This document shows, one piece after another, positions 10,874 through 41,884 of a stretch of DNA of 64,000 bases. Where the stretch lies: assembly GCA_963824615.1 (NCBI GenBank), contig CAWGPU010000004.1, positions 108,852 through 172,851 of the forward strand. Direction: 5' to 3'. The first letter of the stretch is position 1. Each line of letters starts with the position of its first letter. The notes under the pieces were generated by a model. The model saw nothing but the letters and a program-made list of their open reading frames with translations, was not told the DNA's origin and ran no database searches. Source of the DNA: an uncultured Haloplasmataceae bacterium. Lineage in GTDB: Bacteria > Bacillota_I > Bacilli_A > Haloplasmatales > Haloplasmataceae. Made by a program: the position numbers and the translations under genes.

Positions 10874-11383
10874 GTGAGTTATACCACGACTAATGGTCAA
10901 CCCCAAGGATATGCGTATACCTTTATTAATAAACTAAGAGAGGCATTGATAGGTGAAATTGTTGCGATTAATGGCTATGCTAATCACATAGCTAATTCAA
11001 ACATGGAACAAATAAATGCTGCCTGGAGAAGTATCATGAAAGATGAAAAAGAACATTATGGCATGTTCTTAACATTAATTCGCAAATATGATCCTATGCA
11101 ATATAATAAATATTTAGAACATATGAACACAAAAGTCAATGTGACTTCTTTACAAACATATCAACCTGAGTATAATAAACAACTTATTCTAAATAACATT
11201 AGGGAGGATGTAAAAGGTGAACTTGAAGCAGTCATTTTATATGAACAGCTTTGGAATGAAATAACAATTGAAGACGTAAAGAATGTATTATATACAGTTA
11301 TACAAACTGAAAAAGGTCATGCTGAGCATCTAACTAGATTATTAATTAATTTTGATCCAGATAAATATGACGGTCTTACATAA
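10874..11383 (+). CDS. ferritin-like superfamily protein (possible CotJC/manganese-catalase-like)
   Basis: GTG start with a GGAGGTG RBS. GEIVAINGYANH...IMKDEKEH resembles the GEL-A---Y and EE--H metal-ligand helices of ferritin-like/CotJC proteins. Its 3' 110 bp is duplicated at 18072-18190. Confidence 0.35.
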   Translation: MSYTTTNGQPQGYAYTFINKLREALIGEIVAINGYANHIANSNMEQINAAWRSIMKDEKEHYGMFLTLIRKYDPMQYNKYLEHMNTKVNVTSLQTYQPEYNKQLILNNIREDVKGELEAVILYEQLWNEITIEDVKNVLYTVIQTEKGHAEHLTRLLINFDPDKYDGLT

Positions 11384-12018
11384 TTAGCGATGCTCATGAT
11401 ACTGATGTTGGAAGATAGCTAGTGGATATTTTTTCATGAGTCGAAAAGACTCATCATTTAAATTTTGAATAGAAATGTTAAAAGGGACTGAATAATTAAT
11501 AATCAGTCCCTTTTCAATTATATTTTACTTATTTATTTCTAAATTTTTATAGCTTTTAAGAAAGAATGCTAGTAAAAACCCAATTATTGAAAGTCCCGTT
11601 AGTAACCAAATAGAATCATGGAAACCATTTACCATAGCTTGTGAAACTTGAGTCTGCATGGCAACAGGTAAATCTGAAATTTTAATGATTGATTTTTGCC
11701 AATACTTGTTATATGAAATTGTGTAAGAACTGGCGTAAGGTGAAACACTTCGCGTGCTTGGAAATAAGATACAACTACACGTTTTGGTAGTTTATTACTT
11801 AATGCGGTTCCAAGTCACGTAACGACACTTTGAGGAAATAAAGCGAGACCAGTCACCAGTACTGTCTGTATTTTTTGCATGAAGACGGGAATTAGAACTA
11901 ACATAGAAAACATGATGACCGCAGCTAACGTACAGATAAGTATTGAGATTGCCGCATTTGAACTTTTAAGTAATCTTAAGTTTACTACAGAGTGTTTACG
12001 ATTGTAACTCCATATAAT
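11262..12018. repeat. direct repeat copy A (~90% identical to 18072-19078, with a ~250-bp internal deletion)
   Basis: By-eye alignment: 11262-11520 matches 18072-18330, and 11520-12018 matches 18330-19078 minus about 18565-18815. Confidence 0.8.
11520..12018 (-). pseudogene. decayed 3' fragment of an MFS (DHA2-type) efflux transporter gene, paralogous to 18321-19829
   Basis: Nucleotide identity to the C-terminal 250 codons of the intact MFS gene. There is no intact ORF, and internal deletions and indels are present. Confidence 0.7.
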
Positions 12019-12236
12019 ATTAATTTATGATAACTACTTTGACAAACAACGACCTAAATTATAAAACAGGTTGGCATTTTCATAAACAAATATCGACAAA
12101 AGTATGCTAATAATTAAGTTAATTACTTATTATGTATAATTTACTGCATCGAATTTTGCAAAAGAATGCCGATTACATTGAAAATTACTAAAAGCCGAAT
12201 TATGATTATGTTAATAAGATGAGAGGAGGATATTTT

Positions 12237-12359
12237 ATGACATCAATTAATTACTATGCTTTCAATCTAAAAAGTCATTTGAGAAGTGTTTGGTTTGTTG
12301 TTTTAATTCCTATTTTATTAATTCTTGGGGTAAGAAACAGTTATAAAAAATATACCTAA
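12237..12359 (+). CDS. small hydrophobic protein (40 aa, MTSINYYAFNLKSHLRSVWFVVLIPILLILGVRNSYKKYT)
   Basis: Strong RBS GAGAGGAGGA 7 nt upstream. It has a single predicted TM helix and lies immediately 5' of IS607 tnpA. Confidence 0.3.
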   Translation: MTSINYYAFNLKSHLRSVWFVVLIPILLILGVRNSYKKYT

Positions 12360-12381
12360 ATCTATCTAAATATGAATATAA

Positions 12382-13020
12382 ATGAATAGAATTGGGGAAA
12401 TTAATATTGAGGTGGTCAATATTAAAATATCAATAAATAAAGCCAGTGAAATAGTTGGTGTGTCAATTAATACATTGAGAAGGTGGGAAAAAGAAGGGAA
12501 AATTACATCTGAACGAACAAAAGGAGGACATAGACGTTACGATAATAACTCCTTATTGGGATTAATAAACAAAGGGAATGAAAAACTTAGTATCGCATAC
12601 TGTAGAGTATCATCATTTGATCAAAAAGATGATTTAATAAGACAGATTAACACGGTATCAGAATATTGTATTGCTAGAGGATATCAATTTAGGATTATAC
12701 AAGATTTAGGTAGTGGACTGAATTATAATAAAAAAGGATTAAAAGAACTAATAGAATTAATATGCAGCCAAAGAATCAATCGAATCATCATCAATTATAA
12801 AGATAGGCTAATAAGATATGGATATGAAATCATAGAAAATATATGTGAGCTAAACGGTGTTAAAATCGAAATCATTAATCATACAGAAGATAAAACATAT
12901 GAACAGGAATTAGTAGAGGATGTATTATCTATTATTACAGTTTTTTCTTCAAAATTATATGGAAGTAGAAGCCATAAAATAAAAAAAATCAAAGAGGAAT
13001 TTATAAAACTAATGAAATAA
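12382..13020 (+). CDS. tnpA: IS607-family TnpA: MerR-type HTH fused to a serine recombinase (resolvase) catalytic domain
   Basis: The N-terminus (ASEIVGVSINTLRRWEKEGKI) is a MerR-like HTH. IAYCRVSSFDQKDDLIRQ contains the catalytic Ser of serine recombinases. The size (~200 aa) and the position upstream of tnpB fit IS607. Confidence 0.8.
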   Translation: MNRIGEINIEVVNIKISINKASEIVGVSINTLRRWEKEGKITSERTKGGHRRYDNNSLLGLINKGNEKLSIAYCRVSSFDQKDDLIRQINTVSEYCIARGYQFRIIQDLGSGLNYNKKGLKELIELICSQRINRIIINYKDRLIRYGYEIIENICELNGVKIEIINHTEDKTYEQELVEDVLSIITVFSSKLYGSRSHKIKKIKEEFIKLMK

Positions 13021-13124
13021 AGAGTTAATATGGAAGATAATATTAACTTTTTTAAATATATCAATCATTATTCATTGATAATCAAACAAATGTTTGCTAT
13101 AATGTATATAGGGGAGGTGGTAAT

Positions 13125-14360
13125 ATGATATTTAATAGAAGCGTTGAAATTACTTTTAATAAAAAAGATCAATTGATATTAGATGGTCAAAGTAAAATAT
13201 GTAACTGGTTATATAATCATTTATTAGAGATGGTTAAAAGTGATAAGGTATCCGGATTATTAGAAGGTAGAAATTTACGAAATGAAATACCAAAACTTAA
13301 ACTAGAAAAACCATTTTTAAAAAGTGTTTATTCATCACCATTAAAAAATGTAGCTTTTAGATTAATGTCAACATTTAATGGCTTTTTTAATTATGATAGA
13401 GGGTTTCCTAAGTTTAAATCTTGGAAAGTCAAATGGTTTTCTTTATTTTATGATGAACCTAACAAAGGATATAAAATAATCAATAATAAAGAAATACAGA
13501 TAAATTTAGGAAAAGATAAAGATAATAGACGATTAAAAGTAAATGGCTTATTAAATGAGTCATTACATTTAAAAGAAACCGATCAAATAAAGAATTTTAG
13601 AATCTGTAAAAAACGAAGAAAATTTTATGGCATATTCTGTATAGAGCGAATTGATATTGTCCCAAAACATGTGAACAGTTTTTTATCAATTGACCCTAAC
13701 CATAAGAATTTCTTTGTAGGAATTAATAATAAAGGTGAAAGTATCGAATTTGAGAAAATAACACAAATTCAATATTTTGATAAAGTAATCGATGAAATTA
13801 AATCAAAAAGAGATAGATGTAAAAAAGGTTCGAAAAGGTGGAAAAGATTAAATAGAGTAATAGATAAAACATATCACAAAAAACAAGAACAGATAAAGTC
13901 AATGTGTTATTGTGTATCTAATTATATAGCGAGAAACTATGATTGTGTATTAATAGGTGATTATACTCCTAGTTTAGAAACCGCAAAATACGAAACGATG
14001 CATCGGAGTATGTTAAACCAAACAATCATAGGAAAATTTAGAACGATATTAGAATGGGTGATGATAAGAAGTGGAAAACAATTTAAGTTAGTAGATGAAC
14101 ATGAAACAACGAAAGTATGTTCTATATGTGGTCATAGTGAAAAGAAGAATCCATCGATAAGAGAATTTGTTTGTCGCAATTGTGGGCGACATTTAAATCG
14201 AGATATTAATAGTAGTATAAATATCGCTAAAAAAGGAAATATATTGTCTGACTCGGACTTTGTTAAATGGGAATTATCTCATGTAACATATACTGCAAAA
14301 TGGGATTATAGGAAATCTAGAATCTTATTTACAGGCTATGCATCTAAAAAAGCTGCATAG
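13125..14360 (+). CDS. tnpB: TnpB (OrfB_IS605 RuvC-like RNA-guided endonuclease) with C-terminal zinc finger
   Basis: 411 aa. The C-terminal zinc finger reads CSICGH...CRNCGRHLNRDINSSINIAKKG, and a RuvC-like D...E...D arrangement is present. GGGGAGGTGGTAATATG RBS. This is the canonical TnpB architecture. Confidence 0.85.
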   Translation: MIFNRSVEITFNKKDQLILDGQSKICNWLYNHLLEMVKSDKVSGLLEGRNLRNEIPKLKLEKPFLKSVYSSPLKNVAFRLMSTFNGFFNYDRGFPKFKSWKVKWFSLFYDEPNKGYKIINNKEIQINLGKDKDNRRLKVNGLLNESLHLKETDQIKNFRICKKRRKFYGIFCIERIDIVPKHVNSFLSIDPNHKNFFVGINNKGESIEFEKITQIQYFDKVIDEIKSKRDRCKKGSKRWKRLNRVIDKTYHKKQEQIKSMCYCVSNYIARNYDCVLIGDYTPSLETAKYETMHRSMLNQTIIGKFRTILEWVMIRSGKQFKLVDEHETTKVCSICGHSEKKNPSIREFVCRNCGRHLNRDINSSINIAKKGNILSDSDFVKWELSHVTYTAKWDYRKSRILFTGYASKKAA

Positions 14361-14560
14361 ATGAATTAAATCAAAGATAGGAAAATCTTTGAGCAAAATC
14401 TACCTAATGTTAGATTTTAGACAGATTTAGTTAGATTTTGTAGAGCGGCTACTTGGCTTATTGGAATGTCAATTTACTGTCTTACCCAAGGTTATACAGG
14501 ATTTGTAGGTTCATGGAAGATTGTCAACTGGGGTCTTAGTATTAAATTTAACTGCATTTA
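14200..14560 (+). ncRNA. predicted TnpB-associated omega-RNA (reRNA) scaffold overlapping the 3' end of tnpB and extending downstream
   Basis: Established knowledge: omega-RNAs derive from the tnpB 3' end plus the right element end. A GC-richer structured stretch (gtagagcggctacttggcttattgg...ggttcatggaagattgtcaactggggtc) follows the stop. No structure was computed. Confidence 0.35.
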
Positions 14561-14651
14561 GTTTTGAAATTTTTGCTTATGAAGCACATAATATTATGTG
14601 TTTCATAATTATTAAATGTACTAATGTTAATTAGATGGGAGAATTTTTGGT

Positions 14652-15404
14652 ATGTTAGAGAAAATAATTACCAGCACAAGTATAATTTTTCCAAATAATG
14701 TTTGTATTGAAAATGGTTATATTTACGATAAAACAACTGACTTGAGATTAGATGTTAATACACTAAAATTTAGTAAAATAAATGATTTAGAAAAACAATT
14801 AAATGGTTTTCTATTAATTAACCTTGTTGAAAAAAATATTGTATTTAAGATATTGAAAAGTCTGATACCTTTGGGATGTAATTACAGATATTCAATAGAT
14901 GAAAATAGACATCTTGCTTATAAATTAATATATTTGTTTAAATTAATGTTTAAACAAACTTTAGTTATTCTAGTGTTTATTTTAATGGTAGTCAATCTAT
15001 TGTTTTTATATGTTGATTTAAGTTATTATCTCTTTATTTTGAAGAATTTTGCTATTATTTATATTAATATTTTGTTATCTATATATTTACATGAAACAGG
15101 ACATTTAATTAAAACTTTCATTAAAAAAGAAAAATCTGATGTTATTTTTTCTGGGTTTTCTCTGTCTGTGCTAATTTCTAATAAAATGAAAGACGACTTC
15201 TTGACTTTATTTTTAGGACCATTTATACCAGTGATTATAGGTTTATGCATGTTGATAATTTCAAATAATCGTCATATAGGGAACAACCTAGAAATAAATT
15301 TATATTTTATATCTTTTATATACTTAGTCCACTTCATAAATTTTTTCCCCTTTACAACCGATGGAAGAAATATGTTCAAATATCAATTTAAGAAGAATCC
15401 ATAG
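14652..15404 (+). CDS. membrane protein with intramembrane HExxH motif (putative metalloprotease-like, M50/CPBP-type)
   Basis: The C-terminal half is polytopic. YLHETGHLIK (HETGH) is embedded in a hydrophobic segment. The N-terminal ~100 aa are soluble. Confidence 0.35.
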   Translation: MLEKIITSTSIIFPNNVCIENGYIYDKTTDLRLDVNTLKFSKINDLEKQLNGFLLINLVEKNIVFKILKSLIPLGCNYRYSIDENRHLAYKLIYLFKLMFKQTLVILVFILMVVNLLFLYVDLSYYLFILKNFAIIYINILLSIYLHETGHLIKTFIKKEKSDVIFSGFSLSVLISNKMKDDFLTLFLGPFIPVIIGLCMLIISNNRHIGNNLEINLYFISFIYLVHFINFFPFTTDGRNMFKYQFKKNP

Positions 15405-17852: not shown

Positions 17853-18071
17853 TTTATATAATTATACTTAATAGGAAATTTTGAAATAGATGAAAATGCA
17901 AACGTGCTAAGATAAAGATACATATATTTATAAAGGATATTATGAGTATTTGTCAAATAAAGAAAAAATGAACTCTTGTGTCATTATTGTAGTAAAAAAT
18001 CAATTTCCATTTATTTCTATTTTAGATTCTATTATTGAAAATCACATGTTAAGTTTCATATTTTGGATTTA

Positions 18072-19078
18072 ATTGAAGATGTGTAGAATGTATTATATAC
18101 AGTTATACAAACTGAAAAAGGTCATGCTGAGCATCTAACTAGATTATTAATTAATTTTGATCCAGATAAATATGACGGTCTTACATAATTAGCGATACTC
18201 ATGATAGCGAGGTTGGAAGAATATTTTTTTCATGAGTCGAAAAGACTCATCATTTAAATTTTTAATAGAAATATTAAAAGGGACTGAATAATTAATAATC
18301 AGTCCCTTTTCAATTATATTTTACTTATTTATTTCTAAACTTTTATGGCTTTTAAGAAAAAATGCTAGTAAAAATCCGATTATTGAAAGTCCTGTTAGTA
18401 ACCAAATAGAATCATGGAAACCATTTACCATAGCTTGTGAAACTTGAGCCTGCATGGCAACAGGTAAATCTGAAATTTTAACTGTTGAGTTATGGCCAAT
18501 ACTTGTTATATGAAATTGTTTAAGAACTGGCGTAAGGTGAAACAATTCCCGTGTTTGAAAGTAGGCTACTAGAATTGCTATTCCTACCGCACCGCCAATT
18601 CGTTGCGCGATATTAAATAATGTGTTTCCATCGGTTGTTTCGTGAGATGGCAAACTACCTATTAATTCCATTAATAATGGTTGAATAACAAGACCAACCG
18701 CAAATCCTCGTATAATGAGTAAAGCGGATATTTCCCAAACTGACGTATGATAGTCAACTAATTGTAAACATACCGTACCTAACATGACTAAAAACATTCC
18801 TAGGATTACTGTTTTGCGTATACCTACACGCTTTGGTAATTTATTACCTAATATGGTACCAAGCCCTGTGACGATACTTTGAGGAAATAAAGCAAGTCCA
18901 GTCACCAGTACTGAATGTTCCTGTATTTTTTGCATGAAGACGGGAATTAGAACTAACATAGAAAACATGATAACCGCAGCTAAGGTACAGATGAGTATTG
19001 AGATTGCCGCATTTGAACTTTTTAGTAATCTTAAGTTTACTACAGGGTGTTTACGATTGTAACTCCATATAATATAAA
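18072..19078. repeat. direct repeat copy B (the intact version of 11262-12018)
   Basis: Contains a 110-bp 3' fragment of the ferritin-like gene, the shared bidirectional terminator and the 3' ~750 bp of the intact MFS gene. Confidence 0.8.
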
Positions 19079-19829
19079 TCAATATTAAAAGAGCTCCACT
19101 TGCCCAGTAAGGCCAGGCTTGTAATGATAACCCACCATGAAGCGGAATATTAGATGTTCCAAATGTTAGTAATGCAAGTCCACCAGATAAAAATAATAAA
19201 CCAAGCGGATCAAACTTAACATCCTTACTACCTTTTGTATAAAAGGTATGAGGTATCTTTAAAGTCGCAATAAAACCTATGATACCGATAGGTACGTTAA
19301 TCCAGAATATTAATTGCCATCCTGAAATTTGAATTAATAATCCTCCTATTGTTGGACCTAAAGCAGGAGCTAAGAAAAGGACAATCCCCATCAGTGGCGA
19401 AATAGTATTAAAAATATCACTATCTTTTTCCTTTTTACCACCTAGTAACATTTCCATTGCTAGAGGTAGCATTGGTGCTCCAAACATTCCTTGTAAAATT
19501 CTGGCGACTAGAAGCATTTCGAAATTATTTGATATGGCACATAAAATAGAACCCACCGTGAATCCTACCATACTGATTAAATAAATCCGTAAGGTACCAA
19601 AACGTTTTGCCAAATAAGCACTCGCAGCAAGTACTGCAGCTAAGGCTAAAAGATAACCAGAAATAATCCATTGCATTGTCGTTTCAGATCTATTCAACTG
19701 AAGTGCAATGTTTGGTAACGCCACAGTGACGATATTTGAATCCATCATAGTTAAAAATGGTCCCATTAGTAGTCCTATTTGTGCGATAAGAGTTAGTCGA
19801 TTAATATTTTTTCCATTTTTTTGTTTCAT
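18321..19829 (-). CDS. MFS transporter, DHA2 (14-TMS) drug:H+ antiporter type
   Basis: 502 aa with about 14 hydrophobic segments and MFS motifs (GxLaDRfGrr-like LAKRFGTLRIY). It is divergent from the MarR gene. Confidence 0.75.
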   Translation of the reverse strand: MKQKNGKNINRLTLIAQIGLLMGPFLTMMDSNIVTVALPNIALQLNRSETTMQWIISGYLLALAAVLAASAYLAKRFGTLRIYLISMVGFTVGSILCAISNNFEMLLVARILQGMFGAPMLPLAMEMLLGGKKEKDSDIFNTISPLMGIVLFLAPALGPTIGGLLIQISGWQLIFWINVPIGIIGFIATLKIPHTFYTKGSKDVKFDPLGLLFLSGGLALLTFGTSNIPLHGGLSLQAWPYWASGALLILIYIIWSYNRKHPVVNLRLLKSSNAAISILICTLAAVIMFSMLVLIPVFMQKIQEHSVLVTGLALFPQSIVTGLGTILGNKLPKRVGIRKTVILGMFLVMLGTVCLQLVDYHTSVWEISALLIIRGFAVGLVIQPLLMELIGSLPSHETTDGNTLFNIAQRIGGAVGIAILVAYFQTRELFHLTPVLKQFHITSIGHNSTVKISDLPVAMQAQVSQAMVNGFHDSIWLLTGLSIIGFLLAFFLKSHKSLEINK

Positions 19830-41722: not shown

Positions 41723-41884
41723 CAAATAAAAAAAAGATGATTGAGGGAATCATCAAAATAAAAAAAAAGATGATTGAGGGAATCATCAAAATAAAAAAAA
41801 AGATGATTGAGGGAATCATCGGAATAAAAAAAAGATGATTGAGGGAATCATCGGAATAAAAAAAAGATGATTCCTTGAATCACC
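41723..41884. repeat. tandem array of five ~33-bp units, each a 7-bp-stem hairpin (GATGATT-GAGGG-AATCATC) with an A9 or T9 run
   Basis: Four perfect copies and one degenerate copy. The spacers are identical (AAAATAAAAAAAAA or GGAATAAAAAAAA). On the minus strand each unit reads as hairpin plus T9. Confidence 0.85.

Follow-up and report, generated by a model that had tools for sequence, protein, structure and literature searches.

An apparently complete IS607-family insertion sequence with a rearranged-RuvC TnpB and a predicted omega-RNA in an uncultured Haloplasmataceae bacterium

The stretch of DNA analysed here (the window; 64,000 nt of contig CAWGPU010000004.1 from an uncultured Haloplasmataceae bacterium) is AT-rich, with a GC content of about 25%. 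Positions 12331-14448 are occupied by an insertion sequence (IS) of the IS607 family, 2,118 bp in length, with both of its genes on the forward strand. The first, tnpA (12382..13020), codes for an IS607-type serine transposase of 212 aa. The second, tnpB (13125..14360), codes for a protein of 411 aa which by family, alignment and fold is assigned to the RNA-guided nucleases of the rearranged-RuvC ('Ealt' or TnpB2) type. The 3' end of tnpB overlaps the scaffold of a predicted omega-RNA (reRNA) on the same strand. For the copy at 12331-14448 it is established what the two genes are, where the element ends, that the RNA structure is conserved and that the catalytic residues are conserved as well, and we consider it highly likely that they make up one complete element in which serine transposase, TnpB and guide-RNA scaffold work in the way proposed below. 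The copy is ordinary but complete; it belongs to a well-described kind of element and opens no new question.

An initial annotation, made from the sequence alone, had read this region as an IS607-family element with a MerR-serine recombinase and a full-length TnpB, and the database matches, at scores far above chance level, bear out both assignments. The tnpA product consists of an N-terminal MerR-like helix-turn-helix (HTH) domain, followed by a serine-recombinase catalytic domain that carries the motif YCRVSSFDQ. It matches the Pfam families MerR (50.7 bits) and Resolvase (69.5 bits) as well as NCBIfam NF033518 'IS607 family transposase' (217 bits against a cutoff of 110, over positions 2-185 of the 187 in the profile). 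The match to the catalytic domain of ISC1926 TnpA (PDB 6dgc) has E=2.2e-36, and the serine motif (RVSS.DQ, YxRVSSxDQ) is aligned. TnpB matches NCBIfam NF040570 'RNA-guided endonuclease TnpB family' (148.7 bits, where the cutoff is 100) and Pfam PF07282 (Cas12f1-like_TNB, 66.9 bits). Its zinc finger, C332xxC335...C350xxC353, is intact, and the four cysteines are invariant across 58 relatives.

The relatives compared comprise 47 loci from species-representative genomes, 80 metagenomic loci and one close metagenomic copy, L048. Among 185,579 species-representative genomes the nearest TnpB is 60% identical. The nearest relatives overall are L048, with a TnpB of 87% amino acid identity, and P0001, whose TnpB is 97% identical and truncated. 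L048 is the one related copy (about 90% nucleotide identity) with a right flank unlike that of the window; its DNA is about 90-95% identical to the window element and stands in a different genomic context. A megablast search of 12100-14700 against plasmid and phage collections gave no match.

The element's right end (RE) was set at 14448 because the similarity to L048 stops there and about 25 relatives share the terminal block. Identity to L048, about 95% near the right end, ends exactly after 14448 and amounts to 39% from 14449 onward. The more distant relatives, about 25 in number, end in (T/A)GTAG(A/G)(A/G)CGG, which is directly followed by unrelated sequence. In the window, the corresponding terminus on the forward strand is GTAGAGCGG (14440..14448). 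Its final GG (14447-14448) is predicted, by analogy with published systems, to be both the crossover dinucleotide and the last two bases of the RNA scaffold.

The left end (LE; 12331..12381, forward strand) begins with TAAGAAACAG and was defined by a signature, an inverted repeat and a motif scan. Wherever the left end of a related element can be read, GGG(G) directly precedes the conserved left-end signature. Upstream of tnpA the relatives show GGG(G) followed by CT(A/T)nAAACAG(T), also given in the shorter form CTAnAAACAG. The window matches this signature at 12324-12342, where CTTGGGG is followed by TAAGAAACAGTT, and with the left end at 12331 the junction is read as GGGG directly before TAAGAAACAG. 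From the left ends of the relatives, the left flank T-GGGG (12326..12330, forward strand) is predicted to be target site and target-adjacent motif (TAM), its last GG (12329-12330) being the predicted crossover dinucleotide. The longest inverted repeat of the region is imperfect (12332-12370 with 14416-14454; 39 nt, 77%), and it supports the left boundary because its arms coincide with the two independently inferred ends. Other copies have both ends in common with the window element: the match at the right end is exact for L048 and about 25 relatives, and at the left end it is the signature that recurs among the relatives.

Hallmarks of IS607 ends are GG termini, a (G)GG target and the lack of a target-site duplication; their inverted repeats are imperfect only, and TnpA binds to subterminal repeats that are helically phased (PMC6188088). 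In the window element, the right end terminates in ...GCGG at 14448, and TTGGGG stands to the left of the element. Beyond GG, no target duplication is shared by the flanks TTCTTGGGG and CTACTTGGC. Subterminal 12-mers are present in both ends. In LE these are AAATATACCTAA (12348-12359) and AAATCTATCTAA (12358-12369), which lie 10 bp apart on the forward strand. In RE, AAATCTACCTAA (14396-14407) is found on the forward strand, while AAATCTGTCTAA (14417-14428) and AAATCTAACTAA (14427-14438) are on the reverse strand, again 10 bp apart. Allowing at most one mismatch, the 12-mer AAATCTAnCTAA has 10 matches in the window, half of which (5 of 10) are inside the two ends; this motif was derived from these end sites themselves and the enrichment statistic is thus partly circular. 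By analogy with the published elements, the 12-mers are probably the binding sites of TnpA. A search for shared LE/RE motifs in the relatives, made with exact substrings, was too insensitive to show co-variation of the TnpA sites. It seems that the outer pair of RE 12-mers also forms a helix of the omega-RNA (H5, see below), so that the right end would be used at the DNA level and at the RNA level alike.

The element appears to split a small host open reading frame (ORF), the halves of which are found at 12237-12330 and 14449-14561. The 5' half (MTSINYYAFNLKSHLRSVWFVVLIPILLILG..., 12237..12330, forward strand) has the ribosome-binding site (RBS) GAGGAGG and starts with ATG at 12237. When the element is removed by joining 12330 to 14449, an in-frame hydrophobic ORF of 68 aa results, with the stop codon TAG at 14559-14561. 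This ORF has a strong RBS and lies directly upstream of M50B-like and ABC-transporter genes. No paralogue of it was found in the window or in the compared loci. It could code for an orphan membrane peptide or might not be a gene at all.

The initial annotation had given the element a span of 12230-14560 and had the RNA end near 14500-14560. The span is about 100 nt too wide on each side; the additional sequence consists of the two host ORF halves, and therefore the earlier coordinates match the interrupted ORF almost exactly. The end of the scaffold lies at 14448, which is 50-110 nt upstream of the position given before. A wider layout, with an element extending from 12230 to 14560, a scaffold that ends only at about 14500-14560 and a guide after it, might draw on a GC content that is slightly raised through 14250-14549 and on a hairpin at 14566-14619 with a chance-level Rfam match. 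That the 3' region is comparatively GC-rich, as had been noted, holds weakly (0.31-0.33 versus about 0.25 in tnpB), and part of this signal comes from flanking host DNA. The drop in identity to L048 from 95% to 39% at 14448/14449, the divergence of all relatives directly after ...GCGG, the family hidden Markov model (HMM) match that stops at 14448, and the joining of 12237-12330 and 14449-14561 into one host ORF all contradict the wider layout, which we regard as having practically no chance of being correct.

With the element thus bounded by 12331 and 14448, its 3' part contains a conserved RNA structure (14293..14448, forward strand, about 157 nt), which was defined by RNAalifold, pair counts, an HMM and the minimum free energy (MFE). 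It overlaps the 3' end of tnpB and ends with GUAGAGCGG. For 11 related 3' ends, RNAalifold gave a consensus of five helices with 41 pairs, all on the forward strand. H1 (14293-96 with 14445-48) is invariant and so is untouched by covariation. H2 (14305-11 with 14317-23) lies within the coding region and H3 (14336-42 with 14354-60) spans the TAG stop codon. They are followed by H4 (14371-78 with 14385-92) and by H5 (14393-14406 with 14427-41), which is made of the RE 12-mers. An almost invariant single-stranded segment, GAAUUAAAU (14363-14371), is located between H3 and H4; inspection by eye revealed no convincing pseudoknot partner for it. An earlier RNAalifold run on 22 diverse sequences had produced only 2 helices, owing to misalignment at indels.

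Compensatory changes, with both sides altered, occur in 22 of the 41 pairs. Standard pairs are found in 93.3% of the cells, compared with 36-47% after a shift of the 3' partners by 1-3 columns. None of 500 shuffles matched the observed percentage paired, the number of compensatory pairs, the number of compensatory cells or the covariation score. The count of further pair types is not exceptional, being reached by 102 of the 500 shuffles. For the single window sequence, the MFE z-score is -4.76. An HMM built from the alignment has a single match in the window (14292-14448, E=5e-33), and with it the homologous RNA was recovered from 47 loci, where it follows tnpB and almost always ends at RE.

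Conservation towards L048 changes in the same region. Over the first 1104 nt of tnpB the identity is 89.8%, and 82% at third codon positions; over the last 132 nt it is 94.7%, and 95% at third codon positions; in the 88 nt after the stop codon it is 95.5%. The rise from 82% to 95% at third positions points to nucleotide-level constraint on the 3' end of tnpB. These data support the interpretation that the conserved structured RNA at the 3' end of tnpB, which ends at RE, is the omega-RNA, its expression being inferred. The initial annotation, which had an omega-RNA overlapping and following the tnpB stop codon, was right in this respect, and the conserved structure shows covariation.

Two observations concern the extent of the scaffold. 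In the 3' coding region of tnpB, the hairpin GTCTGACTCGGAC (14246-14258) shows strong nucleotide-level conservation across relatives (TTGTCTGGCTCGGACTATG). The scaffold may thus start upstream of 14293, as early as about 14229, a signal that is inseparable from protein-coding constraint. In five loci (L053, L061, L004, L063 and L062), an extra hairpin of about 30-40 nt, for example GGTGCTTAA...TTTAGCACT, follows the tnpB stop codon in the H3 region; this is a scaffold expansion segment.

The guide had been expected just beyond the right end, and this placement is upheld by the variable sequence that directly follows the conserved position 14448. The predicted guide is CTACTTGGCTTATTGG (14449..14464, forward strand), directly 3' of the scaffold end. 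Its length of 16 nt was assumed from published TnpB systems, and it could be about 20 nt. By this analogy the 3' end of the omega-RNA would be near 14464-14470. With up to 3 mismatches, the guide has no other match in the window.

The active site of TnpB is rearranged. D190 (IDPNHKN) is invariant in the 58 relatives. The position of the canonical RuvC-II glutamate is taken by Gly278 (LIGDYTP), which is invariant in 15 relatives and nearly so in the 58, and a glutamate six residues before the first CxxC, Glu325, is invariant in the 58. R359 is also invariant in this set and D360 nearly so. The resulting pattern, E325-x6-C332xxC335-x14-C350xxC353-x6-D360, agrees with the one described for rearranged RuvC sites, CxxC-x(12-18)-CxxC-x(4-8)-D, and not with the canonical D-E-D arrangement, since a Gly stands at the ..xEDL.. 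strand position. In a phmmer alignment, D190/E325/D360 coincide exactly with D324/E467/D501 of ApmFz2 (PDB 9b0l). By sequence (phmmer, PDB), ApmFz2 with 45 bits is a better match than ISDra2 TnpB with 34 bits. As read from these alignments, the RuvC site is built of D190, the relocated E325 and D360. The statement in the initial annotation that RuvC-like residues are retained holds for this rearranged set (D190, E325 as the alternative glutamate, D360): the catalytic residues are present on alignment, but not in canonical form, the canonical Glu position being Gly278.

This arrangement has been described repeatedly. D324/E467/D501 is the catalytic triad in the structure that cryo-electron microscopy gave for the mimivirus Fanzor2 (PMC11832414), and the E467A exchange abolishes cleavage by ApmFNuc (PMC10530073). 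TvTnpB, of the rearranged bacterial type, is active and lacks collateral cleavage (PMC10530073). An exchange of E to G with a compensating glutamate characterizes the largest 'RIIr' group of a TnpB census (PMC10691335), and in Yoon et al. (PMC10711439) proteins with this arrangement make up the 'Ealt' class. A confident AlphaFold2 model of the window TnpB (pLDDT 89.3, pTM 0.81) has as its best Foldseek matches ISDra2 TnpB (8h1j; E=7e-17, TM 0.69/0.77), ISFba1 TnpB, Cas12f and ApmFz2. Gly278 is located in strand 274-279 of the model and Glu325 directly after strand 319-324, a modelled placement that fits the published relocation from beta4 to beta5.

The missing canonical RuvC-II glutamate could also be taken as a sign that TnpB has lost its nuclease and only binds DNA under RNA guidance, in a TldR-like or regulatory manner, and inactivated TnpB derivatives do exist (PMC10691335). 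However, the invariant Glu325 is found at exactly the ExxxxxxCxxC position that is catalytic in ApmFz2 (PMC11832414, PMC10530073), D190 is invariant and D360 nearly so. In addition, a transposon with its own TnpA and a guide derived from the flank represents the arrangement of a nuclease with a homing role rather than that of a regulator with a fixed guide. Loss of nuclease function is hence very improbable.

The RuvC-I motif of TnpB is D-P-N (I-D190-P-N192). N192 is invariant in the 58 relatives, some of which have DQN or DLN. Of the fingerprint of Fanzors and pro-Fanzors, the protein has the Ealt component and lacks DPG. It is conceivable, though we rate it as unlikely, that TnpB and its relatives, from Bacillota, Chlamydiota, Anaerolineae, Planctomycetota and Methanohalobium, belong to one widespread clade associated with IS607, in which a Fanzor-type glutamate is combined with D-P-N and which neither of the published search patterns (DPG... 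or D{P}G...) would have retrieved. Such a DPN/Ealt clade could be a non-cyanobacterial sister of pro-Fanzors and Fanzor2 that has been overlooked. On this view the window TnpB could also be a compact nuclease of 411 aa with a G-rich TAM and without collateral activity, paired with a well-defined scaffold of 157 nt.

Upstream of tnpB, a promoter-like site was identified by its consensus match, TTGATA-17-(TG)TATAAT (13075..13103, forward strand). Within 12000-14750 no site comes closer to the consensus (11 of 12 positions), and the -10 element is an extended one (TGnTATAAT). L048 carries TTGAAA-17-TATAAT at the same place. To judge from these motifs, the site could drive both tnpB and the RNA.

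Transposition chemistry, TAM, guide length, nuclease activity and homing role are taken over from published relatives. Published IS607 systems use a GG crossover and a (T)GGG sequence as target and TAM (PMC10690162, PMC10711439, PMC6188088, PMC11832414). For CboIStron, a GG crossover, a TGGG target identical with the TAM, a scaffold ending in UCGG and retention driven by cleavage of the donor joint have been reported (PMC10690162). ISXfa1 has a GGG TAM, and the right-flanking nucleotide belongs to the scaffold (PMC10711439), and a GGG TAM is also used by ApmFz2 (PMC11832414).

For the window element we propose that TnpA would bind the repeated 12-mers in both ends and, with the GG dinucleotides at 12329-12330 and 14447-14448 as crossover partners, release the element in the form of a double-stranded circle. 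The circle would reinsert at (G)GG sites without target duplication. Excision would leave a scarless joint in which ...TTCTTGGGG is followed directly by CTACTTGG...; the predicted donor joint reads ...TTCTTGGGGCTACTTGG... or ...ATTCTTGGGGCTACTTGGCTT..., and the predicted circle junction ...GTAGAGCGGTAAGAAACAG.... tnpB would be transcribed from its own promoter-like site or by read-through from tnpA. The 3' part of the transcript (about 14293-14448) would fold into the five-helix scaffold ending in ...GUAGAGCGG, and about 16-20 nt of flank would then serve as guide. The empty donor site that excision leaves without a scar, namely the TAM TGGGG followed by CTACTTGGCTTATTGG..., would be recognised and cut by TnpB with its omega-RNA, using the RuvC site D190/E325/D360 and the C4 zinc finger. 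The cut would trigger homologous repair from the sister chromosome, by which the element would be retained. The occupied site would be spared from self-cleavage by the GCGG, instead of GGGG, inside RE.

Several points weigh against a complete and working element as proposed here. The start codon of tnpA is ambiguous. ATG 12382 has no obvious Shine-Dalgarno (SD) sequence. In the relatives, the RBS GGAGGTG is followed after 5 nt by a TTG or ATG start. The window has AGGTGG-TCAAT-ATT at 12410-12423, so that an RBS-like AGGTGG (12410-12415) is present and the homologous position is taken by a non-canonical ATT (12421), 13 codons downstream of ATG 12382. The 64-kb window contains no second copy of the element. 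In P0001, which lies on a contig of 1.49 Mb and has a TnpB of 97% identity, a C-terminal frameshift truncates the protein, and thus the lineage includes decaying copies. With respect to the boundaries, the exact position of the left junction has an uncertainty of ±1-2 nt because of the G-run. The homology search with the 68-aa ORF did not detect an empty target site, and the reconstructed ORF has no homologue among 5.8 billion protein clusters; for these reasons, the left junction rests on the LE signature and the in-frame fusion. As to the models, no omega-RNA family of Rfam is matched by the window at gathering threshold or by 11400-15000 at E<=10; the Rfam scans gave chance-level matches only (SNORD79, mir-15). 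NCBIfam NF038280, the 'IS607_TnpB' exception model, yields just 47.4 bits against a cutoff of 350 and covers residues 223-371 only; this model describes a different TnpB subfamily.

Part of this evidence would suit a structurally complete element that is a functional relic, with TnpA translated poorly or not at all, the copy fixed and decaying, and TnpB and omega-RNA idle or engaged in residual retention. The ATT at the relatives' tnpA start position, together with the lack of an SD sequence before ATG 12382, the single copy within 64 kb and the frameshift near the C-terminus of the 97%-identical TnpB are compatible with a relic, as is the generally low recent mobility of TnpB elements (PMC10691335). 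On the other hand, neither ORF is shortened, none of the catalytic and zinc-finger residues has been lost, and the comparison with L048 reveals stronger nucleotide constraint in the RNA region than in the coding region. L048 is the same element at a different site, which suggests that the lineage has moved in the time in which about 10% divergence arose between the two copies. We therefore think it rather unlikely that the element is a relic, and continue to favour a complete element that functions as outlined above.

What is gained is a cleanly delimited and apparently intact IS607 element with a defined scaffold/guide boundary, a predicted TAM and an omega-RNA supported by covariation. As boundary, TAM and RNA structure are defined, TnpB is directly testable as a small programmable nuclease with a rearranged active site. 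The copy exemplifies known rules: the target of TnpA is the TAM of TnpB, the scaffold ends in the crossover GG, and the RE repeats double as an RNA helix.

In the surroundings of the element, a perfect-stem AT-rich hairpin, GCTTATGAAGCACATAAT/ATTATGTGTTTCATAA, is located at 14566-14619, between the interrupted ORF and the next gene (ATG 14652). It lies outside the IS and has only chance-level miRNA matches in Rfam. In the host, this hairpin may serve as a terminator or an attenuator.

Positions 11266-12036 (copy A) and 18071-19090 (copy B) are direct duplicates, about 0.8-1.0 kb long and 82-95% identical. In copy B the 3' part of an MFS transporter gene (18321-19829, reverse strand) is intact, and there is also a 115-nt fragment of the 3' end of a rubrerythrin-like gene. 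Copy A contains the intact end of the rubrerythrin-like gene (10874-11383) and a decayed MFS fragment with a deletion of 252 nt. The two repeats bracket a module of about 6 kb. In it are the small ORF split by the IS, genes for an M50B-like membrane protein, for an ABC ATPase and for a polytopic membrane protein of 483 aa, and an ORF of 94 aa. This module looks like inserted or duplicated cargo.

A tandem array at 41725-41880, in a region that looks intergenic, comprises about 4.5 copies of a 33-nt unit, the last of which is degenerate. Each unit consists of an A-run and the hairpin GATGATT-GAGGG-AATCATC.

In gene organization, the element resembles IS607 of H. pylori, IS1535 and ISC1926 (PMC6188088), in which a TnpA with MerR-like HTH and serine-recombinase domain is likewise followed by tnpB on the same strand. 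The family features of ends in GG beside a G-run, no target duplication, an imperfect inverted repeat and subterminal repeats spaced by 10 bp are also shared. At the sequence level it is a different element from these three, and its TnpA sites are predicted ones. With CboIStron and ISXfa1 (PMC10690162; PMC10711439) it has in common an omega-RNA that overlaps the 3' end of tnpB and RE, a scaffold that ends in ...CGG and includes the crossover GG, and, as predicted here, a G-rich (T)GGG TAM identical with the TnpA target; the C at position -3 in RE would spare the occupied site in the same way. Unlike CboIStron, the window element has no group I intron. An IStron reading was considered and rejected: Intron_gpI has no match (gathering threshold or E<=10), and the distance from LE to tnpA is only 51 nt. 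The active site of the window TnpB is of the rearranged type, with Gly at the canonical Glu position and an alternative Glu.

The Gly at the canonical Glu position is shared with TnpB2 (PMC10530073), the E-to-G members of RIIr (PMC10691335), Ealt proteins and pro-Fanzors (PMC10711439) and ApmFz2 (PMC11832414). Further similarities to rearranged-RuvC TnpBs and ApmFz2 are that an invariant Glu precedes the first CxxC by six residues, that TnpB is associated with an IS607 TnpA and that its predicted TAM is of the GGG type. In contrast to Fanzors and pro-Fanzors (D-P-G) and to most TnpBs (D-hydrophobic-G), the RuvC-I motif is D-P-N. The hosts are Bacillota and others, not cyanobacteria, and the window TnpB has neither an N-terminal extension nor a nuclear localization signal. 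When folds are compared, ISDra2 and ISFba1 TnpB come slightly nearer to it than ApmFz2 does. ISDra2 TnpB, from the IS200/IS605 family (PDB 8h1j/8exa), has the same WED/REC/RuvC/ZnF fold, a similar size and an omega-RNA at RE. It differs by its Y1 transposase partner, by transposition of single-stranded DNA, by the AT-rich TAM TTGAT and by a canonical RuvC-II glutamate.

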